From positions 64,693-128,692 of the forward strand of contig JBEGVS010000064.1 in NCBI GenBank assembly GCA_041178185.1: a stretch of 64,000 nt of DNA, in the 5' to 3' direction. Each line of letters begins with the position of its first letter. Positions within the stretch are counted from its first letter, which is position 1. The notes under the pieces are model-generated. The model saw only the letters and a program-made list of their open reading frames with translations. It was not told where the DNA came from and ran no database searches. Positions 35,601 to 64,000 of this stretch are shown here, piece after piece. This DNA is from Pseudomonadota bacterium (GTDB lineage: Bacteria; Bdellovibrionota_C; UBA2361; OMII01). Made by a program: the position numbers and the translations under genes.

Positions 35601-35796
35601 CTGTAGGGGGCTACCTCCTCCGCCTCTATAAGGAACCTCTCTTTGGGTTCCCCGAATAGCTCCCCATGGAAAGGAAGATGAAATACCACCCTCACGGGAG
35701 TATATTTTTTTGAACCTTTAGCCTTGAGGAGGGATTGCTGCTGTTACAGACAGAAGAATAGGCGCTACCCGTTTTGGTTAGCTATGGTCCTCCGTG

Positions 35797-50632: not shown

Positions 50633-52555
50633 TTACTTGTTGTCGCGAACCTCTTCATAGTCGGCGTCAACAACGTCATCCTTATGGCTTGCACCTGCGC
50701 CGTTCTGCGACTCAGCTGCTCCAGCTCCGTTGGCGGTAGCTCCTGCAGCAGCAGCTCGCTTGTACGCCTCTTCGGAGAGCTTGTGACTCGCCTTCTCAAG
50801 GTTCTCGTACGCGCGCTTGATAGCATCCTGATCGTTGCTCTCGAGGGCCTTCTTGGCTTCCTCAAGCGCCGTATCGACGGTGCCCTTGAGTTCAGCAGTT
50901 GCCTTATCTCCGAGCTCCTTCAAGGTTGACTCAGTTGCGTAGACCATCGTGTCGAGCTTGTTCCGCTCCTCGATCAGCTCTCGACGCTTACGGTCCTCTT
51001 CGGCGTGCTCTTTCGCGTCCTGAACCATGCGCTCGATCTCCTCTTTCGAGAGTCCGGAGCTTGAAGTGATCTTAATCGACTGCTCCTTGCCCGTACCGAG
51101 GTCCTTAGCGGAAACCGATACGATACCGTTAGCATCGATGTCGAAGGTTACCTCGATCTGAGGAACTCCTCGAGGGGCAGCCGGAATTCCAACGAGCTCG
51201 AAACGTCCGAGTGTCTTGCTATCCGCAGCCATCTCTCGCTCTCCCTGGAGCACGTGAATCGATACTGCTGGCTGATTATCAGACGCCGTTGAGAACACCT
51301 GCGATTTGCGAGTGGGGATCGTTGTGTTCTTCTCGATCAGCTTCGTGTTCACTCCACCGTAGGTCTCGATTCCGAGACTGAGTGGGGTAACGTCGAGAAG
51401 GAGAACATCCTTAACGTCACCTTGAAGAACGCCTCCCTGAACTGCCGCTCCTATAGCAACGGCTTCGTCCGGATTTACGCTCTTCGAAGCTTCCTTACCG
51501 AAGATCTCCTTAACGCGCTGCTGTACAGCAGGCATACGGGTCATACCACCCACGAGGATAACCTCGCCGATATCGCTCGCACTAAGGCCCGCATCCTTGA
51601 GCGCAGTCCTGCACGGAGCCTCAAGACGTCGCAGAAGATCAGCGCACAGCTGTTCAAACTTGGCGCGGGTGATCTTCAAGTTAAGGTGCTTAGGTCCTGA
51701 AGCATCCGCCGTAATGAACGGAAGATTGATGTCGGTCTCCATAGAAGAGGAGAGCTCGTGCTTCGCCTTCTCAGCCGCCTCTTTGAGACGCTGAAGCGCC
51801 ATCGTGTCCTTGCGGAGGTCGATCCCCTGATCCTTCTTAAACTGATCCGCGATGTAATCAACGAGGATCAGATCGAAATCCTCTCCTCCGAGGAATGTAT
51901 CGCCATTCGTTGACTTCACTTCAAACACCCCATCGCCGAGCTCAAGAATCGATACGTCGAACGTACCTCCTCCAAGGTCGAACACAGCGACGGTCTTCTC
52001 GTGCTTCTTATCGAGGCCGTAGGCAAGCGCTGCCGCCGTTGGCTCGTTGATAATTCGAAGAACGTTCAGTCCAGCGATCTTTCCAGCGTCCTTCGTAGCT
52101 TGACGCTGCGCGTCATCGAAGTATGCAGGAACGGTAATCACAGCATCGGTCACAGCCTCCCCGAGGTAGTCCTCAGCGGTCTGCTTCATCTTAGTAAGAA
52201 CCATCGCGGAGATCTCTTGCGGGCTCTTGGCTTCACCCTTGAGCTTGACCCATGCATCCTGATTTTGCGACGAGGCGATCTCGTACGGCAGAACACCCTT
52301 GGCCTTCTCCACCTCTGGGGCGTTAACCTTCCGACCGATCAATCGCTTCACCGCGAAGATTGTGTTCTTCGGATTTGTAACGGCCTGACGCTTCGCTATC
52401 TGACCTACAAGACGCTCTCCTGCGTCGTTGACACCAACCACAGAGGGGGTCGTGCGGCTTCCCTCGCTGTTGGCGATGACGGTCGGTGCTCCAGCTTCCA
52501 TCACGGCAACGCACGAGTTCGTGGTTCCAAGGTCAATTCCAATTACTTTTCCCAT
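50633..52555 (-). CDS. dnaK: chaperone DnaK (Hsp70)
   Basis: [18 protein letters not shown], and an EEVD-less bacterial C-terminus. Confidence 0.97.
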
Positions 52556-52607
52556 AGCTCGTAGTACTCCTTGCTTAAAATCTTTAAATCTTTCTACCGT
52601 TCTTCTC

Positions 52608-53195
52608 TTAGGCTCCGTCTCCTGCTGTGGCGACGATCACCTCTCCGAACCGGATCAACTTATCCTTGTAGTAGTAGGGCTTCTTCAGCTCACCCACGAT
52701 TACTCCTGACTCGGCTCCCGGCACTCGGCTAATCGCCGCGTGCTTTTGTGGGTCGAACTGGGTTCCCATGCTCGACTCCCCCCGAATCTGCCACTTTCCA
52801 AGCTTTTCAACGAAGAGCCTGTGCACCATCTCCAACCCAGTTTTCAGGCTGTCTTGGCTTGCCGAGCTGTGGGAAAGCGCGAGCTCCAGGTTGTCCAGGA
52901 CCTCGAGCATATCTACAACGATCTTCTCTCCTTGGTATTTAAGTAGCTCAGACTGCTCCTTCAAGGCCCGGCGCTTAAAATTTTCAAAATCGGCCGCGAG
53001 TCGTAGGTAGCGGTCCTTTGCATCCGCTAGTTCAGCCTCAATGGACGGCTTCTCTCCAGCCTCAGGCTGAGCCTGATTCTCATTAGTAACATCTTGATTT
53101 GGCTCGGTATTATCTCCGCCTACATCCATGGCTTCGGCCTCTTCACGTGACTGCTTTTTTGACATTCGTGGTCTTTGCGTTTTGTTGAGTGGCAC
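52608..53195 (-). CDS. grpE: nucleotide exchange factor GrpE
   Basis: GrpE coiled-coil and beta-domain. The start may be the ATG at 53165 rather than the GTG at 53195. Confidence 0.85.
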
Positions 53196-53302
53196 CCTTT
53201 CGGCCTGAACCAGACCTCGAGAGCTTTCAGATCGATTAAAGGGCTCCGGCCCTTAAACCTTTCGGATAGGGTGTGCTATAAACACTTGCCGAGGCTTTTT
53301 CA

Positions 53303-53941
53303 ATGTCCACCCCTCAAAACGACTCACTTATTCCCGCAGAACAGCTAAAAAGGGGTCAAGAGACCTCGGTTCCGGCGATCGTCCTTCGAGTCACCCCGTT
53401 CCGAGAGAGCGACCTGATCGGACACCTCCTGACCCCAAGTATGGGCAAGATCTCGGTCATAGCCCGACATGCTCGTGGCAGTCGCAAACGGTTCCCGAGC
53501 TCCCTTGATCTCTTCGACCGAGGAACGGCTCGCCTCACCGTCGAAAAGAGCGGCGCCCTCGGCGTGAAGGAATTTTCACCATCGCACTCCCTTGTTCGGA
53601 TACGCCATGACCTCGATAAGCTCACCCTGGCCTCCCTCCTCTGCGAAGCGTTCGATATCGTTATCCCTGAGCACGGTGGGCATGCGACCCCACACCTCTT
53701 CGAGGTTCTCGACCTCTCCTTGAACGCGATCGATGAGGCCGCAGACGTCAAAGGGAGTCTCCGAGCAACCTTTATCGCCCTGGCGTCGCTGACACAGGAC
53801 AGTGGTATCGCCGATGTCTCGTCAGCGACTCCTGGCAGTCGCGCACTCGCACATCTCCTCGACACCATCGAACGATTCTGCGAACGTCGCCTCATGACAC
53901 GGAGCGCCCTGAAAGACATCATTAAACGAGCGGCGACGTGA
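53303..53941 (+). CDS. recO: DNA repair protein RecO
   Basis: RecO N-terminal OB-fold (AIVLRVTPFRESDLIGHLLT). Confidence 0.7.
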   Translation: MSTPQNDSLIPAEQLKRGQETSVPAIVLRVTPFRESDLIGHLLTPSMGKISVIARHARGSRKRFPSSLDLFDRGTARLTVEKSGALGVKEFSPSHSLVRIRHDLDKLTLASLLCEAFDIVIPEHGGHATPHLFEVLDLSLNAIDEAADVKGSLRATFIALASLTQDSGIADVSSATPGSRALAHLLDTIERFCERRLMTRSALKDIIKRAAT

Positions 53942-53963
53942 CGCCGCGCACGAGAGGATTACT

Positions 53964-54761
53964 ATGAGCACAACCACTACCTGCCTTGGTGTGATACCGG
54001 TTCGACTGGAGAGCTCACGCTTTCCCAACAAACCCCTTAAAGATATCCACGGAAAAACGCTCGTTGAGCGGGTGTGGCTTCAGGCCGGTCAGAGTAGTTG
54101 CGTAACGACCCTCGTCGTCGCAACGAACAATGAGGAGATCGCTGCCGAATGTACCAAGAAGGGCATGCGACACATCATGACCAGCGCATCACACGAAACA
54201 GGAACGGATAGAGTGGCGGAGGCTTGTGCCATACTTGAGAAACAGGGGCACTCATTTGACCTCGTAGCAAACATCCAAGGAGATATGCCCTTCGTGAATC
54301 CAACCGTGATCGACAGCGTGATCACATCGCTCGCGCGCTCCGAATCGGAATTTGGAATGGCGACCATCGGAACGCCGATTACAAGCCGCGAGGAGTTTGA
54401 GCGACCAGCCTCGGTTAAGATCGCGCTAGGAGAGTCGGGGCGTGCGCTGTACTTCTCACGTTCTGCTGTTCCCCACTGGCGAAACTTTCCAGGCGATTCG
54501 GCTATCTCAGCGGAGAGTCCGCTCGGCTACAAACATATGGGGCTCTATATATTTCGTCGAGAAACACTTGCGCAAATAGCGACCCTTCCAAAAGCCTTTA
54601 CCGAACAACGCGAGGCGCTGGAACAGCTCCGCGCTCTCGCCCACGGAATCGCCATTAAGGTGCATATCGTTTCGAGAGAGTCAGTTGAACCGTGCATTGA
54701 GGTCGACACGCCAGAGGATCTAGAACAAGCAATCCGCTTCGCCGCGCTCAAGAACCTCTAG
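53964..54761 (+). CDS. kdsB: 3-deoxy-manno-octulosonate cytidylyltransferase (CMP-KDO synthetase)
   Basis: IPVRLESSRFPNKPL and a ribosome-binding site (GAGAGGA). Confidence 0.9.
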   Translation: MSTTTTCLGVIPVRLESSRFPNKPLKDIHGKTLVERVWLQAGQSSCVTTLVVATNNEEIAAECTKKGMRHIMTSASHETGTDRVAEACAILEKQGHSFDLVANIQGDMPFVNPTVIDSVITSLARSESEFGMATIGTPITSREEFERPASVKIALGESGRALYFSRSAVPHWRNFPGDSAISAESPLGYKHMGLYIFRRETLAQIATLPKAFTEQREALEQLRALAHGIAIKVHIVSRESVEPCIEVDTPEDLEQAIRFAALKNL

Positions 54762-55333
54762 CTTGGTGGGGCTTTGCAGCTCAAGCGGCAGCATGGTGAA
54801 AGTCGCTGCACACGCAGCGAGGGCGCTCTAACAACGAGCACATGACTTCATTCGTTCAGTACACAGCGATCTGTCGACCTGTCCATTCAGCTCCCACGCC
54901 CATTCCTCTTCGCAGCAGGAAAATAAAAAACGGCCGGATTTGTATCCGCAAGCCAGGTAGCTGCAATCGTTTGTGGTAGCCGGCAACGGGTAGTTTGCAA
55001 GCTCTCACCAGGTCCATAGATTTAGTCATCCGTCTCTGTGAGCCCATGCCTGCTCTATCGGATATAGCGAAAACAAGTCTCTTGCCCCAGAACACACGAT
55101 CCGGTGATCTACCCCATATGGAGCATTGAACGGACCGGCTCTAATCGCCATCCTCTGGCCTAACAACCTGTATACATGGGGCTTTGTTGCAGCTTGAGTA
55201 GGGTTTGAGCGATGCGGTATCCTTGAGGCTTGAGTTAAGGTGCTGGATCAGGGGATCTGCACAATACCTATGTTATGCCCTCTTCTTGTGCTTCACCCCC
55301 TCCTGTGTTCTCGTTAGCGACGGAGGTGCGGAT

Positions 55334-56140
55334 ATGCTTCAGCCAACGAATACAAACATTTTCTCTGAATTTAGTCATTTTGGAGACTCCCTGATATCAC
55401 AGACTCACGAGCTAGTGCTTTCGCTGTGGAATCAGAGCTCTATTCACTCTGAGCTGAAGGAGGATCAGACCCCGGTGAGCGAAGTTGATCTTCGCTGCGA
55501 GGAGCTGGTTCGACAGCGAGTAAGACAAGCATTCCCCTCTCATGGAATCGTAGGTGAGGAGTTCGGATGGGAGAACAGAGGAGCTGAATTTACATGGACT
55601 ATTGATCCCATCGACGGCACTCAGAACCTGATTAATCGGATTCCAACCTTTGGGACCATCCTTGGGCTCCTTCATAAAGGTCAGCCGATCATGGGGTGGA
55701 TTGATCATCCTGTCTTGGGGGACTCCCTTCGCGGTGGAGTTGGAGTGGGCACCTTTTTCAACGGCACCAAGGTAACCTTAAATGATATACCAGAGTCAGG
55801 GATGACTCCTAACGATATAATTGCGACGAATTGCCCCGCGACATTTGCCAGAGGGGATCACCTGTCAGTTCTCGACGCTATTCTCAGGTTTCACCCCCAT
55901 TCCAGGATATACTACGACGTCTACTCTCACTCTCTCGCGATACGGGGTAGTCTCGCTGTAATGGTCGAATACAATCTTAAAATTTGGGATTTGTCGGCAA
56001 CAAAAGCGCTTATTCTGGGAGCGGGGGGCGCATTTCAAGAGCTTGGTAGCGAAGAGCTGACTGACGGGACAACCCTGTTTCACGCGGCATTTGGCAAGAA
56101 GCGCGCTGTGAATCTCATGGCAAAAGCATTATCAGAGTAG
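55334..56140 (+). CDS. inositol monophosphatase / CysQ family phosphatase
   Basis: WTIDPIDGT metal-binding motif. The ATG at 55334 is preceded by GGAGGTG, and the track's upstream extension lacks a ribosome-binding site. GC is visibly lower than in the upstream core genes. Confidence 0.75.
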   Translation: MLQPTNTNIFSEFSHFGDSLISQTHELVLSLWNQSSIHSELKEDQTPVSEVDLRCEELVRQRVRQAFPSHGIVGEEFGWENRGAEFTWTIDPIDGTQNLINRIPTFGTILGLLHKGQPIMGWIDHPVLGDSLRGGVGVGTFFNGTKVTLNDIPESGMTPNDIIATNCPATFARGDHLSVLDAILRFHPHSRIYYDVYSHSLAIRGSLAVMVEYNLKIWDLSATKALILGAGGAFQELGSEELTDGTTLFHAAFGKKRAVNLMAKALSE

Positions 56141-56198
56141 GCACGCGGCTCCTTTAAAGGGTATGTCAGAGCTGCTTTGCTAATGATACCATCGGACT

Positions 56199-56474
56199 AT
56201 GACTTTGCTCTTCGAATGGGACGCCTCCAAGGCTCGGTCAAATCTCAAAAAACATGGAATCTCTTTTGAAGAGGCCACTACTATTTTCGGTGATCCACGA
56301 GCAATTACCATTCAATCCTCAGTAGTTAGCGGAGAGAAGAGGCTGGTCACAATCGGCCGCTCTGCCGCAGGTCGGTTTGTCATAGTGGTGGTACATACCG
56401 ATAGAAATGATAGAATAAGAATTATAAGTGCTCGGCCCGCCAGCAGGGCGGAGCGGAAGCAATACGAGGGCTGA
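56199..56474 (+). CDS. brnT: BrnT-family (DUF497) type II toxin
   Basis: MTLLFEWDASKARSNLKKHGISFEEA...VVVHTDRNDRIRIISARPASRAERKQY, a close match to the BrnT pattern. Confidence 0.8.
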   Translation: MTLLFEWDASKARSNLKKHGISFEEATTIFGDPRAITIQSSVVSGEKRLVTIGRSAAGRFVIVVVHTDRNDRIRIISARPASRAERKQYEG

Positions 56475-56478
56475 TGAT

Positions 56479-56688
56479 ATGAAGCAGGAATATGACTTCT
56501 CCGAGGGTGTGCGGGGCAAATACTTCAAGCGTTATCAAGCAGGCTCAAACGTGGTGATTCTCGATCCTGAAATTGCCAAGGTGTTTAAAGACTCTGCATC
56601 CGTAAATGACGCTCTCCGCTCTCTTATCCGAGCAGCCGGACATAACAAAACTCTGCTGCGGACGCGCAAGACGCGCCGCAGAGCGTAG
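56479..56688 (+). CDS. brnA: BrnA-like antitoxin
   Basis: MKQEYDFSEGVRGKYFKRY; the gene overlaps and follows brnT; the 3' end lies inside an attC. Confidence 0.65.
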   Translation: MKQEYDFSEGVRGKYFKRYQAGSNVVILDPEIAKVFKDSASVNDALRSLIRAAGHNKTLLRTRKTRRRA

Positions 56689-56696
56689 CGTTACAC
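56641..56696 (+). repeat. attC-like site 1
   Basis: CATAACaaaa / CTCTGCTGCGGACGCG caa GACGCGCCGCAGAGCG / tagc GTTACAC. Confidence 0.65.
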
Positions 56697-56709
56697 AAAT
56701 TACTTACAG

Positions 56710-57033
56710 ATGAATGTTTCGAGGCTGATCAAGAAAAAGACGGGGAAAAGATGCGAGAGTTGTAGGGGAAGCGGCTTTCGCTGGGGGTGGTGGACAGCGA
56801 TCATAACTCTCCCTCTAAGTCTCTTGCTTGATTTAATCGTTCAAGTCCTTCCGATTGCTGTGCTAATCCTTCTCTTGGTCCTCGGATTTTCTTTTATGAC
56901 ACGGGCTTTTGAATGCATCTATTATGCCGTGACGGCCGTTATTGGCCTACCTCTGATTTGGTACGCGTCTAAATTTATTTTTCCGAGGTGTCTAGTTTGT
57001 AATGGTCGTGGACGAGTTGAGCACAATGTGTAA
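56710..57033 (+). CDS. hypothetical cassette protein: N-terminal CxxC, hydrophobic core, C-terminal CxxC
   Basis: CESCRGSG ... two TM-like segments ... CLVCNGRG. Confidence 0.45.
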   Translation: MNVSRLIKKKTGKRCESCRGSGFRWGWWTAIITLPLSLLLDLIVQVLPIAVLILLLVLGFSFMTRAFECIYYAVTAVIGLPLIWYASKFIFPRCLVCNGRGRVEHNV

Positions 57034-57085
57034 CAAGGCATTCGAGCGGGAGCGCCTTAGCGCCCGCTCACTGAAACGTTATGTG
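57028..57085 (+). repeat. attC-like site 2
   Basis: TGTAACAAG gcATTCGAGCGGgagCGCcttaGCGcccGCTCACTGAAac GTTATGT. Confidence 0.75.
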
Positions 57086-57103
57086 CACTAAGGAATTTCA
57101 GGC

Positions 57104-57346
57104 ATGCACGCAGAATTAGATAATTTCGGAACAGGCTGGTACGGGGTAACGCTTGGACTGAAAGAGAATGAAATTGATCACCTCATTGCTGCGCTGAACG
57201 GGTTAAAGAGAGAGAAAACGCACTTCCATTTTCGAAGTGAGTTTAAAGGCGACGGGGGAATTGGCGACGTCGAAATCTATTACCTGAAAGACGAGCAGCT
57301 AGACAATATGGAGCTTGAAGCGAGTGCAACACCTTTGCGGAAGTAG
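57104..57346 (+). CDS. hypothetical cassette protein (80 aa)
   Basis: ORF framed by attC 2 and attC 3. Confidence 0.4.
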   Translation: MHAELDNFGTGWYGVTLGLKENEIDHLIAALNGLKREKTHFHFRSEFKGDGGIGDVEIYYLKDEQLDNMELEASATPLRK

Positions 57347-57431
57347 ACCGGGCGTTACACCACGAGCGGTTCACTTCATCTTTCTCACCTAGGTGGTAAG
57401 AGAGGTCTGTGTATGGTGGCGTATTGTGCAC

Positions 57432-57515
57432 GTAACAACCGCATGGAGTTCGCGTCTGCTGACGCAGCCGCCGGACCTCGCTTACGCTCGGCCGCTCATG
57501 CGGAACGTTATCTCT
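57432..57515 (+). repeat. attC-like site 3 (long, ~84 bp)
   Basis: cGTAACAAcc GCATGgag...ctCATGCgg aac GTTATCT. Confidence 0.6.
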
Positions 57516-57527
57516 TGGAATTCTGTT

Positions 57528-58097
57528 ATGGGAACTAAGCGATTTTTGTTACGTCGGACTACCGCCCTGTGCGCGTTGGCGTTGAGTCTGAGTATGTTCA
57601 CCTATGCTTGTCATCGTGATGAGGTCGACGACGCTGGTGTTTGGCTTGCGAACACTACCAACGTGCCCGTTATTGTGTTCCAAATTCGCGCCGCAGATCA
57701 GCAGAATATCAACGACTATGAGCCTCGAAAGACCAAAAATGGAGAGAATCTATTCGTCAGTAAATCTGTCAGTGTTTCTAACGCGGATATCGGTCGTGTA
57801 CGTGTGATGGGGCATCAATTGGACGGAGTAGCGGAGTTTGAGGTGCAAATAGAGCTTTCCGAAAGTGGAGCGGAACGATTTGCCAACCTCACCGAAGATC
57901 GCATAGGGAAACAGGTCGCTCTTTTGATAGACGGGGTTGTTCAGGTAGCTCCTGTAGTTCGAACAAGAGTATCGAGTCGAACAATAACTCTAGCTGGTTT
58001 TCAGTCGGAAGAAGAAGCCACACGAGTGGCTCTTGGAATGATTGGGATCAGAGATAACATGGAAGCGGAGCGGATCGCCAACGCGCCCGCTCACTGA
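57528..58097 (+). CDS. hypothetical cassette lipoprotein with a SecD periplasmic-head-like segment
   Basis: Lipobox LSLSMFTYAC; KQVALLIDGVVQVAPVVRTRVSSRTITLAGFQSEEEATRVALGM resembles the SecD P1 head. The ATG at 57528 lies just after attC 3. Confidence 0.45.
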   Translation: MGTKRFLLRRTTALCALALSLSMFTYACHRDEVDDAGVWLANTTNVPVIVFQIRAADQQNINDYEPRKTKNGENLFVSKSVSVSNADIGRVRVMGHQLDGVAEFEVQIELSESGAERFANLTEDRIGKQVALLIDGVVQVAPVVRTRVSSRTITLAGFQSEEEATRVALGMIGIRDNMEAERIANAPAH

Positions 58098-58107
58098 AAC
58101 GTTGTGC
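58054..58107 (+). repeat. attC-like site 4 (overlaps the last 13 codons of the preceding ORF)
   Basis: ATAACAT ggaagcGGAGCGGATCGCcaacGCGcccGCTCACTGAAac GTTGTGC. Confidence 0.7.
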
Positions 58108-58178
58108 CCTATAGTGTGGTAGGGCACAGACCTCTATGAAATGCCCCTGTTGAGGGACAAGACCACGGTGCTCCTCGG

Positions 58179-58928
58179 ATGACTAATTACTCAAACATTT
58201 ACAGAGGCGCAGAGTACGCATCCTACAGACCCGAATACCCCGAGGGGTTGTTTCGCTGGTTGTGTTCTCTTCCAGAATCAAAAGAGCATGCGTGGGATTG
58301 TGGTACCGGTAATGGACAGGTTGCTCGCAATCTAGCGGGATTCTTCGAGCGCGTCACAGCTACTGATAGCAACCATGAACAGATTCAGAAGTGCTCTATG
58401 TTGCGAAATATTCGCTATGCGGTTGAACACGCGGAGAAATCATCACTCCCAGACAAAAGTATTGATCTTGTCACGGTTGGGTGTGCGGTACACTGGTTCG
58501 ACACCGAAAAGTTCTACGCCGAGGTCAGCCGTGTACTCAAACCGGGTGGTATGATTGCTGTTTGGTGTTATGAGTATCCGTGGACTGGAAATCACGAAGT
58601 GGATGAAATTCTCCGACATTACAAGGAGGCCATCTTGGGTGATTTTTGGCCTCCGGAGGCTCAGATTTATTTTAATCGTTACCAAAATCTTCAATTTCCC
58701 TTCGAGGGAATACGGGCACAAATCCCCACCTTTGAGATCGATTGTCAGTGGGGGCCGTCCGACGTGCTCAACTTTCTGTCGACCTGGACAGGACCAATCA
58801 GATATAAAAATGAGACCGGGCAGGATCCGAAATTGTGTGTTGAGGAAGATCTGTCAAAGGCATGGAGTGCTGCAGGTCTTACTGTAGGGGTTAAATTGCC
58901 GATCTATATGAAGGTAGGAAAGCTCTAA
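58179..58928 (+). CDS. class I SAM-dependent methyltransferase (Methyltransf_11-like)
   Basis: Motif I DCGTGNGQVARNL and motif II DLVTVGCAVHWF. Confidence 0.8.
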   Translation: MTNYSNIYRGAEYASYRPEYPEGLFRWLCSLPESKEHAWDCGTGNGQVARNLAGFFERVTATDSNHEQIQKCSMLRNIRYAVEHAEKSSLPDKSIDLVTVGCAVHWFDTEKFYAEVSRVLKPGGMIAVWCYEYPWTGNHEVDEILRHYKEAILGDFWPPEAQIYFNRYQNLQFPFEGIRAQIPTFEIDCQWGPSDVLNFLSTWTGPIRYKNETGQDPKLCVEEDLSKAWSAAGLTVGVKLPIYMKVGKL

Positions 58929-59035
58929 ATTTTCTCCATTGTTTAACTAGTTGATGGATCAGCACTAAAGGTGACTGCTTCAGTGTTATGATCGGATAAT
59001 TATCTTGGATTGCACGACCTTGGTTTGGTAAAGTG

Positions 59036-59091
59036 GCACAACAATGTATTCGAGCGGATCGCTAAAGCGGCCGCTCACTGCGACGTTATGC
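59036..59091 (+). repeat. attC-like site 5
   Basis: ACAACAATgtATTCGAGCGGatCGCtaaaGCGgccGCTCACTGcgac GTTATGC. Confidence 0.75.
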
Positions 59092-59098
59092 CGAAGTC

Positions 59099-59728
59099 AT
59101 GATACCCAAGAGAATAATCGTCATCGGTGGCAGCACGGTTCACGGGCAAGGCGACCCCTACAGCGGGGGCTTTGTAGCTCGCCTGCGCAGATGGCACGAG
59201 ACCTCGAGTGTTGAAAACAATCGCGTATTTAACCTTGGTGTCGGTGGCGACGGTGTGTTTGAGATGCTTACTCGAGGCCCGGGAGAATGTCGCGCCCGAC
59301 GGCCTGACCTGATTGTCCTTTACCCCGGCCTCAACGATACGAGAAGAGTTGGCGGACCAGAGGCCCCGCCCCAGCATTCATTTGAAAGTGTTAGAAAGAC
59401 CCTGGGGGCGCTTATTTCTGAGCTAGGCCAAATCTCTCCGCTTGTTGTCTTGAGTGCGGTGCCAGTAGATGAGTCAAGGACCAGCCCATTCTGGGGCAAG
59501 TGGTATTTTCGAATGTCCGATGCAGTGACGATGGCAGAGGTAGTGGCTGAGGTCTGCCGCGTGACTGACACGCCGCATATGCCTTTGTTTGAGACATGGG
59601 CAAGTCGCGCTGACCTTAAAGATCTTCTCGCTGATGGAGTGCACCTGAATTCGGCAGGGCATGAATTGTTGTTTCAGGAGCTTACATCATTTCTTTGCGG
59701 ACTCTTCACGACCAGCCAATCATTATAA
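59099..59728 (+). CDS. SGNH/GDSL-family hydrolase
   Basis: N-terminal block IVIGGSTVHGQGD (GDS(x) variant), LYPGLND, and C-terminal DGVHLN (catalytic DxxH). Confidence 0.75.
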   Translation: MIPKRIIVIGGSTVHGQGDPYSGGFVARLRRWHETSSVENNRVFNLGVGGDGVFEMLTRGPGECRARRPDLIVLYPGLNDTRRVGGPEAPPQHSFESVRKTLGALISELGQISPLVVLSAVPVDESRTSPFWGKWYFRMSDAVTMAEVVAEVCRVTDTPHMPLFETWASRADLKDLLADGVHLNSAGHELLFQELTSFLCGLFTTSQSL

Positions 59729-59766
59729 GTCTTGGCTTATTATAACACAGAGCTTATACTACGCTG

Positions 59767-60099
59767 GTGAAGGTCAGATACTATCAAACCCCAAGTGGGC
59801 GCTCTCCCGTAGAAGACTTCCTGGTACGCTTGCCCGAGGCGATGCGTTCGGAAATCTTCGATGCTCTTGCGCTTTTACAGGCTGGTGTGACACTAGCGAT
59901 GCCCCTCAGTAGAAATCTGTCGGGCATCAGGTTCGGGCTGCACGAGCTTAGATTCAGAGATCGCACCGGTCAGGTACGTGTATTTTATTATTTGAAACGT
60001 GGCGATGCGATATATCTCGTCCATGCGTTCAGGAAGAAGACCCAGCACATCCCTCAAAAAGAGCTTGATATAGTTTTGAAACGAATTAAGGAGATATAG
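59767..60099 (+). CDS. RelE/ParE-superfamily toxin (HigB / Gp49-DUF891-like)
   Basis: 110 aa with a GTG start, immediately followed by an HTH antitoxin gene; KVRYYQTPSGRSPVEDFL...IYLVHAFRKKTQ. Confidence 0.65.
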   Translation: MKVRYYQTPSGRSPVEDFLVRLPEAMRSEIFDALALLQAGVTLAMPLSRNLSGIRFGLHELRFRDRTGQVRVFYYLKRGDAIYLVHAFRKKTQHIPQKELDIVLKRIKEI

Positions 60100-60100
60100 T

Positions 60101-60382
60101 ATGCCTTGGAAAGAAATAACTATCGAGGGTCTCGCCAAGTCTCTGGGAGCTAATGTGTCTGAAGTTCGAGAGAAACAGCGCCTTATAGGGATGATCGTAA
60201 AGATAAGGAAAGCTAAAAGAATGTCTCAGGCTGCCCTTGCTAAAAAGCTAGGCGTAAGCCAGGCGAGAGTCGCACAAATCGAAAGTGGTGTCGGGACATC
60301 GAAGGTTAGCTTTGATGTAATTTTCGGTATTTTGACGACGTTAGGTTATGATTATAGGGTCGTAACCCGTAAGGCGGCATAA
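60101..60382 (+). CDS. XRE-family HTH antitoxin (HigA-like)
   Basis: MSQAALAKKLGVSQARVAQIE helix-turn-helix; 2-nt gap after the toxin gene. Confidence 0.75.
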   Translation: MPWKEITIEGLAKSLGANVSEVREKQRLIGMIVKIRKAKRMSQAALAKKLGVSQARVAQIESGVGTSKVSFDVIFGILTTLGYDYRVVTRKAA

Positions 60383-60432
60383 CAACATCATCCAGCAGAC
60401 CGCTGATGCGGCTGCTGATAGCAACGTTATAC
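60377..60432 (+). repeat. attC-like site 6
   Basis: GCATAAC (supplies the TAA stop) aacatcatccAGCAGaCCGCtgatGCGGcTGCTgatagcaac GTTATAC. Confidence 0.7.
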
Positions 60433-60452
60433 GCAAGAAGATAGCTTGATGC

Positions 60453-60923
60453 ATGGAAATAAAATTTCTTGCCGATCGACCCGATGCGGTTCCCATATTG
60501 GCTCGCTGGTACTTCGAGCAGTGGGGCCACGAGGAGCCGGGCAACTCATTTGAACTTACTTGCGAGCGTCTTAATGGCAAGTTAAATCGAAATTTTGCTC
60601 CGATTCCGATAATAGCGGGCGAGGCAGATGGTACTGTGATTGGTGCTGCCCAGCTCAAGTTACGCGAAATGGACATTTTCCCCGAGAGAGAGCATTGGAT
60701 CGGTGGAGTTTATGTTGATCCATCTGTCAGAGGGCGAGGAGTAGCAGCCGCGCTTGTTGCCAAGCTGATTGAGTTGGCGAAAAATCTCAGCATTAAGGAG
60801 CTCTGGTTACAAACGGAAGCACTGGACGGTGGTCTTTATAAACGCCTGGGGTGGTCAGTTGTTGAGATACTGGATTACAGAGGGCATAGGGTCGCTGTCA
60901 TGGTGAAACAAATTGGCGTATGA
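60453..60923 (+). CDS. GNAT-family N-acetyltransferase
   Basis: Acetyl-CoA-binding motif A, VRGRGVAAALVAKLIELA. Confidence 0.8.
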   Translation: MEIKFLADRPDAVPILARWYFEQWGHEEPGNSFELTCERLNGKLNRNFAPIPIIAGEADGTVIGAAQLKLREMDIFPEREHWIGGVYVDPSVRGRGVAAALVAKLIELAKNLSIKELWLQTEALDGGLYKRLGWSVVEILDYRGHRVAVMVKQIGV

Positions 60924-60973
60924 CAATCGAAGCCAGCAGAGCTTTCTGCACCTGCTGCTCCTAACCGTTATAC
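60921..60973 (+). repeat. attC-like site 7
   Basis: tgACAATcgaAGCCAGCAGagctttctgcaCCTGCTGCTcctaacc GTTATAC. Confidence 0.6.
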
Positions 60974-61148
60974 CCTAGGTTCTATGGGGGTTTAGCCCCT
61001 GGCCCTTCGGAAGAACTGTAGCCACTCTCGAGCAAGTTTGCCCTGGTGATTCGGTAGTTACATCGCTTCGACGGAAGGTTAGCCTCTTGTTCCAGCATCT
61101 TAATTTTTCGTGTTTGAGTATCTCTGCGTAAACCCGTAAGATTAGGGG

Positions 61149-61204
61149 TATAACAAGCCATTCGAGCGGGAGCGCTTTAGCGCCCGCTCACTGAGGCGTT
61201 ATGC
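61149..61204 (+). repeat. attC-like site 8 (closes an ORF-less ~175-bp cassette)
   Basis: gtATAACAAGcCATTCGAGCGGgagCGCtttaGCGcccGCTCACTGAGgc GTTATGC. Confidence 0.75.
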
Positions 61205-61205
61205 G

Positions 61206-61553
61206 ATGAACGATTTTATTTTTGTATTCCTTGATGATGGCACGCTCGATGTTGTTAGCTCTGCTAGCAACATTAACGGAGCCTATGAGGGAATCGATGT
61301 GGAAGAAGGTAGATACGCCTTTTTCAATTCCAAGTTGCATGAGTTGACGCCTAAGTTCACGACAGCGAACAAGAACTCCGGTATTTTTGGGCTCTCGTTG
61401 GTTTCCTCTGGCGCCTACCAGCTGGAAGATTCCGAAGGTGGTAGCAGTGATTTCATGGGGCGACTTAAGCTTGTCTCGAGAGTAAATTCGAATTCATGGT
61501 TTGCGACAATTTCGCAAATCGAGGATTACGCGCGGTCTCTCGGGATCGCATAA
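61206..61553 (+). CDS. hypothetical cassette protein (115 aa)
   Basis: ORF framed by attC 8 and attC 9; the ATG is 2 nt after R'. Confidence 0.45.
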   Translation: MNDFIFVFLDDGTLDVVSSASNINGAYEGIDVEEGRYAFFNSKLHELTPKFTTANKNSGIFGLSLVSSGAYQLEDSEGGSSDFMGRLKLVSRVNSNSWFATISQIEDYARSLGIA

Positions 61554-61603
61554 CAAAACATTCGAGCGGATCGCTAAGGCGCCCGCTCACCGAAACGTTA
61601 TCC
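61548..61603 (+). repeat. attC-like site 9
   Basis: GCATAAC (TAA stop) aaaaCATTCGAGCGGatCGCtaagGCGcccGCTCACCGAAac GTTATCC. Confidence 0.75.
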
Positions 61604-61614
61604 TCCGCACCAAT

Positions 61615-62118
61615 ATGAAAGAAATTACAGTAAGAAAAATGATTGAAGCTGACATTGACGAGATGGCAGAAGTTCATTCAAAGGTGTTCCCGCGCCAATC
61701 ATCTTCACTCGAATGGATTGAATGCAACTTTAAGGCATTTCCTAGAATCCAGTATTTCGTGGTCGAATGTGATAACCGGGTCGTTGGTTTTATCGAATGG
61801 ATCCAGAAAAGTGGATTCCGAAAAGAAGCGGTCCTGGAGCTCGAGCAGATGGGGGTTTTGCCGGACTACCAAGGAAAAGGCTTCGGGCGACTACTGATTG
61901 AAAAATCTCTTCCCTTTGTGAAGCATCAACTTGCATCGAGAGGCGCCACAATAAAGCATGTTGTAGTGACGACGCGCACCGATAATGCCGCGCAAAAACT
62001 GTATGCATCGACTCTAGGGGCAGAGGTGGAAACTACGATTGCTAATCTCTACTCTGCCGATGAAGTGATCATGATTGCCCGTAATGTGGATCGGCAAGGT
62101 GAAATGAGAAGAGGATAA
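61615..62118 (+). CDS. GNAT-family N-acetyltransferase
   Basis: QMGVLPDYQGKGFGRLLIEKSL. The ATG at 61615 is used; the track's longer ORF starts inside the previous cassette. Confidence 0.8.
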   Translation: MKEITVRKMIEADIDEMAEVHSKVFPRQSSSLEWIECNFKAFPRIQYFVVECDNRVVGFIEWIQKSGFRKEAVLELEQMGVLPDYQGKGFGRLLIEKSLPFVKHQLASRGATIKHVVVTTRTDNAAQKLYASTLGAEVETTIANLYSADEVIMIARNVDRQGEMRRG

Positions 62119-62176
62119 CAATCCTGCGCACGATGATTTCGGACTATCGTCCGAAACACGTGGCAAAAACATTATC
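62114..62176 (+). repeat. attC-like site 10 (degenerate R')
   Basis: GATAACAATcctgCGCACGatgaTTTCGGACtatcGTCCGAAAcaCGTGgcaaaaac ATTATCT. Confidence 0.5.
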
Positions 62177-62207
62177 TTACTAATTCAGTTTGTAGACTCG
62201 ATTTACT

Positions 62208-62786
62208 ATGTTCGACGAGAAGCAGCAAAAGCACCTTGAGCGGATCCGGGATGTCGCGGTAAAGGATATAGAGCGAGGCGGAGACAGGAATGGATACACA
62301 AGATGTATTCAAATTCTGGACAAACTGCATGCGCCAGAGAAAGTGAAGGACGAACTCCGTGAAATCGCCTGCTGGGAGCTCGTAAGAGATCTTGTTGATC
62401 CGACGGCTTCTTTTGAAATTCTACGCGGGCATCGGCTTCCTAAGATCCCAAATTATCTGCCGGACGATTTTGGCCATCGCCTTCAATCAGGTACAGCACC
62501 TGAAGTTATGATATCACTTGCAGAGTTGTGCAAGAAGTATGGACTTGCATACGAATATTGGGCTGTTTTAGGCAACTTATACGACCGTAAAGGATTAGTC
62601 GATTTGGCTTGCGAGTATTTTAATCGACAGCATGAATTGACTTTCGACAACCACGACGAATTTTTGGTAGTCTTCGCTAGTTTTTGTGAAAATGTCGCTG
62701 ATAAAGTTCCTAGTGTATCAGACCTTGCGGAGCGTAGATCACGCCTGGCTCAAACTGTGCGGAATATCTCTTTGTCAGATCTGTGA
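62208..62786 (+). CDS. hypothetical cassette protein (192 aa)
   Basis: ORF framed by attC 10 and attC 11. Confidence 0.4.
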   Translation: MFDEKQQKHLERIRDVAVKDIERGGDRNGYTRCIQILDKLHAPEKVKDELREIACWELVRDLVDPTASFEILRGHRLPKIPNYLPDDFGHRLQSGTAPEVMISLAELCKKYGLAYEYWAVLGNLYDRKGLVDLACEYFNRQHELTFDNHDEFLVVFASFCENVADKVPSVSDLAERRSRLAQTVRNISLSDL

Positions 62787-62805
62787 GATGAATGATATGA
62801 ACAGA

Positions 62806-62859
62806 GATAACCAGTAAATTGAACCGACTGCATAGCAGCGGCACATTTTGACGTTATCT
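62806..62859 (+). repeat. attC-like site 11
   Basis: GATAACCagtaaattgaaccgaCTGCatagcaGCGGcacattttgac GTTATCT. Confidence 0.55.
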
Positions 62860-62880
62860 TCCCCTCATCACGGGACAATT

Positions 62881-63354
62881 ATGGCCACAGCATTCAATCC
62901 AAAGGGTATCTTCGAAGTGCACTTAAGTGTCGAAGATCGTCGGCGTTCGACGGAGTTTTACCAGCGAGTGCTTGGTTTTGAGCTAGCCACTCACATTGAT
63001 CGCCGCGACATCACCTTTCTTTGGATGGGCGGTCACGGGTCGGGAATGCTAGGCCTTTGGGGGCCCGAATGTCCTGACTCGCCAATAAGTCGTGGCATAG
63101 GGCACTTTGCGATGCGCCTCTCGAAAGAAGAGGTTATTGAGGCCGTTGATAAACTGCGGCAACTTGGGGTAATTCCGCTAGATTTTGATGGCAAGCCGAC
63201 ACAACAGCCAGTGGTGCTTGCATGGATGCCTGCAGTGTCCATTTATTTTCAAGATCCTGACGGCCACTCACTAGAGTTCATCAGTATGCTCAACGAGCAG
63301 CCGGAAGCGGAACTCGGAGTTTTGAATTGGCAAGATTGGGAGCACAGAAGATAA
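62881..63354 (+). CDS. VOC-family (glyoxalase / bleomycin-resistance / dioxygenase fold) protein
   Basis: FEVHLSVEDRRRSTEFYQRVLGFEL...HFAMRL...DPDGHSLEF. The ATG at 62881 is used. Confidence 0.75.
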   Translation: MATAFNPKGIFEVHLSVEDRRRSTEFYQRVLGFELATHIDRRDITFLWMGGHGSGMLGLWGPECPDSPISRGIGHFAMRLSKEEVIEAVDKLRQLGVIPLDFDGKPTQQPVVLAWMPAVSIYFQDPDGHSLEFISMLNEQPEAELGVLNWQDWEHRR

Positions 63355-63399
63355 CAAGCATCGGCACGGGAGCTACGCCCCGTGCGCAAGACGTTATCT
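63350..63399 (+). repeat. attC-like site 12
   Basis: GATAACAAGcatcGGCACGGGagctacgCCCCGTGCgcaagac GTTATCT. Confidence 0.7.
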
Positions 63400-63410
63400 T
63401 CGTTTCAGGC

Positions 63411-63971
63411 ATGAAAAAATTCGTAATCATTCATGGAACCAAAGGCTCGCCCGAAGGCAATTGGTTCCCCTGGCTCGCGGATTCCCTACGACAACAACAC
63501 GCAGAGGTTGTGGTCCCAAGAATGCCAACTCCCGAAGGCCAGAATCTAGAGAATTGGCTCGAGGAGCTTCGGCGACAAGCTGGAGCACTCGACGAGACTA
63601 CCACTCTCATCGGGCACAGCTTGGGCGCCACATTTCTGCTGCGTGTTCTTGAAAGCCAAAAGGTTTCCATGGCTCAGTCAGTGTTTGTTGCGGGTCTTCT
63701 GGGTCCAATCGGCATTGCGGAATACGATCAACTGAATTCGACTTTTATCGCAACTTCTTACGATTGGGGCACGATACGGAGCAATGCAGGATCTGTGGTA
63801 TGCGTCTCTGGCGAGGGGGACCCGTACGTTCCCGCGGAGCAAGGGAAAGAACTCGCCGCAAAACTCGGGGCCCAGAATCATGTTGTACCCAAAGGCGGGC
63901 ACCTAAATGCCGAGTTTGGCTATACTTCCTTTCCGCAGCTCTTGGGCCTGCTCACTAACGCAGCGGCTTAA
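63411..63971 (+). CDS. alpha/beta hydrolase (YdeN/RBBP9-like serine hydrolase)
   Basis: MKKFVIIHGTKGSPEGNWFPW, a nucleophile elbow GHSLG, and a C-terminal GGHLN. The ATG at 63411 is used. Confidence 0.7.
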   Translation: MKKFVIIHGTKGSPEGNWFPWLADSLRQQHAEVVVPRMPTPEGQNLENWLEELRRQAGALDETTTLIGHSLGATFLLRVLESQKVSMAQSVFVAGLLGPIGIAEYDQLNSTFIATSYDWGTIRSNAGSVVCVSGEGDPYVPAEQGKELAAKLGAQNHVVPKGGHLNAEFGYTSFPQLLGLLTNAAA

Positions 63972-64000
63972 GACCCATCTTAAGAGCGTTGAATTCTGTA

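Follow-up and report, generated by a model that had tools for sequence, protein, structure and literature searches.

A cassette array with an intact-looking attI and a relic of intI, very probably a chromosomal integron, in an uncultured freshwater bacterium

A series of short open reading frames (ORFs), each followed by a palindrome, raises the question of whether the palindromes are integron recombination sites and, if so, what has become of the integrase that would act on them. Such a series closes the 64,000-nt stretch of contig JBEGVS010000064.1 (assembly GCA_041178185.1) analyzed here, referred to as the window: from ~56.6 kb to the window end, short ORFs on the + strand are each followed by an imperfect palindrome of 51-85 nt. 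In integrons, the bottom strand of a recombination site (attC) folds into a hairpin whose extrahelical bases mark it for the tyrosine recombinase IntI, which cuts between the A and C of 5'-AAC-3'. This cut corresponds to G/TT on the top strand, where the slash marks the crossover here and below. A cassette is excised as a circle by attC x attC or attI x attC recombination, the circle is inserted at attI, and transcription of the cassettes closest to attI comes from a promoter within that site or beside it. An earlier note, made from the sequence alone, had proposed an integron-type cassette array in this region, and we found the defining features of attC sites and cassettes, with cassette gain and loss breaking at G/TT. 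We are highly confident that ~55.0-64.0 kb of the window is the integrase-proximal end of a chromosomal integron that has lost intI, in an uncultured freshwater bacterium. It is made up of a ~43-nt relic of a divergent intI, an intact-looking attI, and co-oriented cassettes each ending in an attC. Twelve cassettes are complete in the window and a thirteenth is cut by the window end; with the overlapping contig L001, a Joint Genome Institute (JGI) metagenome contig found through an exact-protein look-up, there are at least 16. The integron is an ordinary example of a well-known kind, save for the near-total absence of its own integrase and the turnover of its first cassette.

Twelve attC sites were located on the top strand by their end sequences (Table 1). 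The palindromes described by the earlier note are real, lie where it placed them and are far beyond chance expectation, but its count of at least 13 attC sites came down to 12. Neither 63953-63994 (42 nt) nor a spot near 59740 was supported as an attC by R1, a covariance model built from the window attC sites, and cassettes 1, 6 and 13 were treated as multi-gene; the statement that every ORF ends at a palindrome gives way to three cassettes that carry three genes each. The proposed R'' and R' ends (RYYYAAC and GTTRRRY) held up well, the left end reading xxxxAAC in all 12 sites and the right end GTTxxxx in 11, with ATT in attC10. Among the six pairs of outer 7-mers that were scored, two were complementary without mismatch and four with one mismatch. 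Seven ORFs stop within the R'' box or inside an attC, in line with the note's remark that ORFs take their stop codon from R''.

The deviating right end of attC10 (62171-62177) is ATTATCT in place of GTTRRRY. A comparable sequence, ACA/TTATGCC, is found where a 100-nt attC precedes cassette 1 in the contigs L038 (~997-1003) and L039, and an A at the position adjacent to cleavage seems to be tolerated in this attC family.

When folded as single-stranded DNA, the bottom strands of the 12 sites form hairpins with 1-2 bulged bases on the 3' arm. The note's suggestion to fold the bottom strand was thus borne out for the hairpins and the extrahelical bases; on the top strand these belong to the left (R''/L'') arm and not to the right arm as it had them. 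The site at 56640-56696 has a bulged T and, across a 6-bp stem from it, a second bulge. An alignment of the 12 window sites with three sites of L001 (MAFFT and RNAalifold) gave 17 consensus pairs, 12 of which show compensatory double changes, so that the inner arms do vary while the fold is kept, as had been claimed. Across the same 15 aligned sites, one unpaired top-strand A (T in the bottom strand) is invariant. In described attC sites the extrahelical bases are found on the bottom strand across from the AAC, a T among them is conserved, and the distance from the first to the last extrahelical base is ~6 bp (PMC5027507); the window folds agree with this description in the bulged arm, the conserved T and the spacing.

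R1 was run with filters off over the window and L001. It scored the 12 window sites at 36-67 bits, as expected by construction since they are its training set, all of them + strand matches, and the rest of the window gave no score above 15.6 bits (E=0.4). With no match in the other 55 kb, the attC family is confined to the array within the window, as the earlier note's reading demanded of a family that is not a genome-dispersed repeat. Three further matches were obtained in L001 (11166-11228, 12022-12084 and 12520-12590), bringing the array to 15 model-supported attC sites with its end not reached, where a sedentary integron is one with >19 attC sites or one present in all genomes of a species (PMC4889954). 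Applied to the class 1 integron of pMAK3, R1 recognized the attC of aadA2 (35.3 bits, E=3.7e-6) and that of aac(6')-Iae (21.8 bits, E=0.005), both on the correct strand and directly 3' of their cassette genes, and the 13 kb searched were otherwise without a significant match. Several attC sites of a cyanobacterial plasmid integron were detected as well. Rfam 15, searched with gathering and E-value thresholds, returned no attC-type family and only chance-level matches.

The array was found to begin ~0.9 kb before the start at 56150 given by the earlier note, at an attI whose crossover lies at 55272/55273. As cassette 1 begins at 55273, the array starts there, and the phosphatase gene at 55334-56140 is cargo rather than part of the core chromosome. 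The attI region is homologous to the intI-proximal region of three integrons with intact IntI (L019, L025 and L033) and of two that lack intI (L004 and L032), and in all six aligned attI sequences the similarity stops at the GTTAT crossover. The core AGATCAnnnGATCTGCACAATACCTATGTTAT is nearly invariant among the six, and the window region also has the conserved blocks GATCCGGTGATCTAC (55097-55111) and TCTAACA. A 121-nt candidate within this region (55158-55278, GCCTAAC...GTTATGC) was considered as a long attC and rejected, since it has no hairpin fold (z=-1.2) and aligns with the attI of other integrons. GATC-based palindromes are conserved in all six attI regions, one being GATCCGGTGATC at 55097-55111 and the other (A)GATCAnnnGATCT beside the crossover (55245-55258), of which the window's own copy is GGATCAGGGGATCT; they may be binding sites for the integrase or a regulator. 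From the alignment of the six attI regions we also infer a possible cassette promoter (Pc) facing the array, of the form TTGAGT-18-TATCCT: the hexamers are conserved (TTGAGT or TTGAGG; TATCCT, TATCAT, TACAAT or TACGAT), whereas the 18-nt spacer is variable in sequence.

On the other side of attI, almost nothing is left of the integrase gene. A nucleotide profile (nhmmer) made from the intI and attI of L019, L025 and L033 matches window 55005-55279 (E=8.8e-25) over profile positions 967-1240. The intI start codon lies at ~1007 of the profile, and positions 967-1009 are all that survives of intI. The remainder of the ~980-nt gene is absent: the relic is followed by 243 nt of unrelated sequence and then by the kdsB stop codon at 54761, which lies 285 nt from the relic start codon. 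The related intact integrons have the start of intI on the opposite strand, at a distance of ~225 nt from the attI crossover. The earlier note had advised a search of the flanks for intI, and this yielded the relic and the conserved attI only. The best tblastn match of full-length IntI to the 64-kb window had E=0.73, and no tyrosine-recombinase motif or IntI similarity was found in the 64 kb, including the 55 kb upstream of the array, and no intI in the 3.2 kb seen downstream on L001. We infer that intI was lost by deletion while attI was kept. The 243-nt stretch contains a terminator-like hairpin with a T-run at 54935-54948 (- strand), ~100 nt downstream of the relic start codon; the number of such terminator-like sites is within chance expectation.

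To find relatives of this integron, the right arm of the commonest attC subfamily was turned into a 23-mer pattern, with which one genome per species was scanned. The pattern was found at 29 loci, mostly in metagenome-assembled genomes (MAGs) from freshwater lakes labelled Bdellovibrionota or 'delta proteobacterium'. The sharing of cassettes does not serve to mark taxonomy. A full-length IntI gene divergent from the array is present at two of these loci, L019 and L025 (TIGR02249, 434 and 439 bits; cutoff 265), and the L019 protein aligns with IntI1 over 99% of its length at 46% identity. L004 (2921-3323) and L032 (705-946) have the same attI and have lost intI, with ~175 nt including an in-frame stop kept in the former and ~10 nt in the latter. 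As the truncation points and the upstream genes differ among L004, L032 and the window, these sequences suggest repeated, independent integrase loss in this integron family. A scan of metagenome contigs with the attI core returned only two short contigs, one with intI and one without, which are too few for population statistics. Orthologues of kdsB with 74-82% identity have differing neighborhoods, none with an integron, and the platform is therefore not ancestral to a broad clade. In L025, an attC (21-81, + strand, 45.6 bits) lies beyond the 3' end of intI (875-1852, - strand), placing attC sites on both sides of the integrase gene.

The strongest evidence for an integron comes from natural variation in cassette 1. 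L001 matches window 51993-55275 at 100% identity and 56690-64000 at 99.97%, and lacks 55276-56689. GTTA is common to both breakpoints of this indel (GTTATGC at 55272 and GTTACAC at 56690), and the first-cassette polymorphism maps to the attI crossover. The same arrangement without cassette 1 was found in a Logan contig from another run (L035), which likewise matches the rest of the window at 99.97-100%, and a third contig (L036) stops exactly at 55275. Cassette 1 itself is present in five further contigs (L037, L038, L039, L040 and L041) at 98.9-100% identity, with the homology beginning at 55272/55273 and ending at 56690-56693; at least four further settings share these same boundaries. Its upstream partner is the 100-nt attC in L038 and L039 (junction ...GAAACA/TTATGCC), another attC in L041 (...GAAACG/TTATGCC) and a variant attI in L040, while L037 covers only the last 3 nt (ACG) upstream. 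The cassettes that follow it also differ (...GTAGCG/TTATCT... and ...GTAGCG/TTATGG...). The base before TT (G or A) comes from the upstream partner and TTATGCC from cassette 1, as the G/TT integron crossover predicts; the predicted junction of the circular cassette is ...GCAGAGCGTAGCG/TTATGCCCTCTTC.... Cassette 1 is a discrete mobile unit bounded by G/TT, and DNA that is otherwise identical either carries it at this attI or lacks it.

These data bear on two other explanations of the array. The palindromes are imperfect, GC-rich hairpins that sit just where ORFs end, and this is also the typical place for terminators and repetitive extragenic palindromic (REP) elements, so that they might be intrinsic terminators or dispersed repeats of the REP or miniature inverted-repeat transposable element (MITE) kind sitting behind genes rather than recombination sites. 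Such repeats or terminators would not be expected to leave R1 without a match in the other 55 kb, to lie on one strand at every site and lack a T-run behind it, or to conserve their AAC and GTT ends around variable, co-varying stems. The breakpoints of natural indels and cassette transfers fall precisely at G/TT, R1 cross-detects bona fide attC sites, and the same site family adjoins IntI genes in other genomes. This explanation is refuted, and we give it practically no chance. The other explanation accepts the integron but holds that nothing was lost and that the integrase is simply outside the window, for instance where the array ends distally, or further upstream. The array does run off the window and is still open-ended where L001 stops 3.2 kb later, and about half of the attC site clusters without an integron-integrase (CALINs) sit in genomes that encode IntI elsewhere (PMC4889954). 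Against this, there is no tyrosine recombinase in the 55 kb upstream, and attI and the first ~14 codons of intI are kept at the syntenic position, followed by the 243 nt of unrelated sequence and kdsB. The array's own intI is therefore gone, whatever else the genome encodes, and an intact integron with a distant integrase is very improbable.

How the two variants at attI arose is a separate question. The relic is 100% identical in both, and cassette 1 was therefore probably gained or lost after the loss of intI, by an integrase that probably came from elsewhere; on the sequences compared, this is the simplest reading. In this scheme the deletion of intI would have come first, and cassette 1 would later have entered or left attI in a single attI x attC event, catalyzed by an integrase encoded by a second integron in the same genome or by a mobile element. 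Alternatively, the polymorphism may have arisen while intI was intact, or in another strain, and been moved by homologous recombination across the flanks. Possible donors co-exist, as in L040, from the same JGI sample as L001, cassettes 1 and 2 follow another variant of attI, and the long flanks, at 99.97-100% identity, are good substrates for exchange. The shared, 100% identical relic and attI of both variants argue instead that the variant was created on an attI of this type, the ~230 nt of homology from relic to crossover leave little room for a left-hand exchange, and such a history takes more steps than one attI x attC reaction with an integrase supplied elsewhere. We consider spread by homologous recombination unlikely, if by no means negligible.

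Several observations weigh against the main reading of this locus as an integron that has lost intI and whose cassette 1 was moved by an integrase from elsewhere. With no integrase visible in the window, activity of the locus cannot be demonstrated from the window, and the distal end of the array lies beyond both the window and L001. No independent contig repeats the window's own junction of attI and cassette 1, the variant attI in L040 being the nearest arrangement. No sigma-70-like site was called in attI by a scan for consensus promoters, and TTGAGT-18-TATCCT is weak and falls below its threshold. The presence/absence variant could also have spread by homologous recombination and not by a fresh integrase reaction in this genome. 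We propose only tentatively that the intI-less integron is still an active exchange platform with an attI serviced in trans, and that in this freshwater integron family loss of intI with attI kept is recurrent and possibly selected, yielding 'client' arrays that depend on a shared integrase. The three arrays (window, L004 and L032) with different truncation points and different upstream genes are the basis for this proposal.

The features of the array are collected in Table 1.

Table 1. Features of the cassette array and of the adjoining attI region, in window coordinates.
Feature	Position	Strand	Content or remark
intI relic	55005-55047	-	Start codon is the complement of 55045-55047; ~14 codons (M..S.R....MDLVR)
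attI region	55048-55278	+	Core AGATCAnnnGATCTGCACAATACCTATG/TTATGC; crossover between G55272 and T55273
Candidate Pc-like promoter	55194-55223	+ (facing array)	TTGAGT 55194-55199, 18-nt spacer, TATCCT 55218-55223
Cassette 1	55273-56690	+	1418 nt; inositol-monophosphatase/HisN-family gene 55334-56140, BrnT 56199-56474 (Pfam, NCBIfam); attC1
Putative BrnA-like antitoxin ORF of cassette 1	56428-56688	+	No family match
attC1	56640-56696	+	
Cassette 2	56691-57078	+	Unknown 107-aa ORF 56710-57033, stop TAA in R''; attC2
attC2	57028-57084	+	
Cassette 3	57079-57507	+	Unknown 80-aa ORF 57104-57346; attC3
attC3	57429-57513	+	85 nt, 36.4 bits
Cassette 4	57508-58101	+	Putative lipoprotein 57528-58097, SecDF P1-head-like domain; attC4
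attC4	58052-58107	+	
Cassette 5	58102-59085	+	S-adenosylmethionine (SAM) methyltransferase 58179-58928; attC5
attC5	59036-59091	+	
Cassette 6	59086-60426	+	GDSL/SGNH hydrolase 59099-59728, Gp49/HigB-like toxin 59767-60099, helix-turn-helix (HTH) antitoxin 60101-60382; attC6
attC6	60377-60432	+	
Cassette 7	60427-60967	+	GNAT acetyltransferase 60453-60923; attC7
attC7	60918-60973	+	
Cassette 8	60968-61198	+	231 nt, no + strand ORF of at least 40 aa; attC8
attC8	61148-61204	+	
Cassette 9	61199-61597	+	Unknown 115-aa ORF 61206-61553; attC9
attC9	61548-61603	+	
Cassette 10	61598-62171	+	GNAT acetyltransferase 61615-62118; attC10
attC10	62113-62177	+	R' reads ATTATCT
Cassette 11	62172-62853	+	Unknown 192-aa ORF 62208-62786; attC11
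attC11	62805-62859	+	
Cassette 12	62854-63393	+	VOC/glyoxalase-family gene 62881-63354; attC12
attC12	63349-63399	+	
Cassette 13	63394-64000, cut by window end	+	Ser_hydrolase 63411-63971

Searches against Pfam and NCBIfam upheld the cargo assignments made from the sequence alone, identifying BrnT, a Gp49/HigB-like toxin with an HTH antitoxin, two GNAT acetyltransferases, a VOC-family protein, a GDSL hydrolase, a methyltransferase and a Ser_hydrolase, together with a putative lipoprotein with a SecDF-P1-head-like domain and several ORFs without a family. The array is longer than what the window holds, as had been foreseen: in L001, cassette 13 goes on with BrnT, a CopG-like antitoxin and an attC, and at least three further cassettes follow. 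The window has three toxin-antitoxin cassettes and L001 adds another two, and the BrnTA and HigBA-like cassettes would be expected to stabilize the array against loss. Besides cassette 1, four window cassettes are common as units to unrelated MAG contigs at 70-88% identity. The entire cassette 9 is 88% identical to L009 3329-3743, while only the HigBA part of cassette 6 is shared with L008 (70% identity). Cassette 8 may have no ORF and could instead represent a promoter, a small RNA or the remains of a gene.

Three cassettes combine an enzyme gene with a toxin-antitoxin pair with no attC between them: the inositol-monophosphatase-like gene with BrnTA (55273-56690), the GDSL hydrolase with the HigBA-like pair (59086-60426) and Ser_hydrolase with BrnT/CopG (63394 through to L001 11219). 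In other MAGs (L007 and L008), the toxin-antitoxin part alone is the shared segment. This pattern suggests either fusions through loss of an attC or toxin-antitoxin modules that move about as the 3' portion of cassettes.

The array lies downstream of grpE-recO-kdsB, and the genes upstream of it (lon, dnaJ, dnaK, grpE, recO and kdsB) are ordinary chromosomal genes, so that the chromosomal context is clear. The G+C content is 48-50% in the array against 52-57% upstream, confirming the drop that had been noted, and the GC skew switches sign. Plasmid and viral scans gave no sign that the array is on a known mobile element: blastn against 72,556 plasmids found no DNA similarity to the window element, and the attC 23-mer was absent from the viral contigs scanned. 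Apart from the array, an intergenic segment of the window (35665-35733) is 80-86% identical to L003 3161-3229 and L023 4054-4109, which are loci of Bdellovibrionota/Bdellovibrionales MAGs that entered the comparison solely because they contain an attC site. Rfam gave only chance-level matches to this segment, which may represent a conserved small gene or RNA, or else hint at the host lineage.

The window array leaves the understanding of the integron mechanism unchanged. Its value is that of an environmental, non-clinical integron seen in good resolution, in which natural variants record cassette mobility to the base pair, as one 1.4-kb cassette was seen at attI, at a variant attI and behind different attC sites. 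It also illustrates how a CALIN can originate, as a complete integron minus intI by deletion, and it is a clear example of a decapitated integron, one whose attI appears to be still in use. That the usual pseudogene screens would miss so short a relic suggests that some of the 'orphan' arrays in databases are decapitated integrons with a usable attI. Servicing of integrase-less arrays in trans is generally assumed and, to our knowledge, has rarely been seen in natural populations; if the turnover of the first cassette does post-date the loss of intI, this locus would provide field evidence for it.

Among known systems, the class 1 integron of pMAK3 (intI1-aac(6')-Iae-aadA2-qacEdelta1-sul1) shares the attC architecture, and R1 recognizes both of its attC sites, but the window element is not on a plasmid or transposon, has no resistance genes and no integrase, and carries a much longer array. 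The complete integrons of the freshwater MAGs L019 ('delta proteobacterium' Loclat_bin-13748) and L025 (DEBay_Sum019D) are closer. They have the attI core GATCTGCACAATACCTATGTTAT, match the attC 23-mer derived from the window, and orient their cassettes alike relative to attI, and differ in keeping a full-length IntI that the window, L004 and L032 are without.

IntegronFinder would classify the window array as a CALIN, with which it shares at least two attC sites, no intI within 4 kb, and cargo that is mostly of unknown function or unrelated to resistance (Cury et al. 2016, PMC4889954). In that survey ~95% of CALINs had no recognizable intI pseudogene nearby and 6.6% had >10 attC sites. The window array differs in having at least 12 attC sites (at least 15 with L001) and in keeping attI and ~14 codons of intI, and by these it can be recognized as a complete integron that has been decapitated, as opposed to an array of the split-off or secondary-site kind. 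The published pseudogene screen needs >50% profile coverage (PMC4889954), and the window relic is too short to pass it. The best biological analogue is the chromosomal integron of Xanthomonas, in which intI, downstream of ilvD, is often truncated or deleted while the arrays persist (Gillings et al., summarized in 10.1101/2025.06.18.660453). A fixed housekeeping locus, the deletion of intI, a persisting array and diverse, mostly uncharacterized cargo are common to both, whereas the host, the locus (kdsB here) and the attC and attI sequences differ. Xanthomonas strains with the same intI lesion usually have identical arrays (10.1101/2025.06.18.660453); here, in contrast, two sequences with an identical relic differ by the first cassette.

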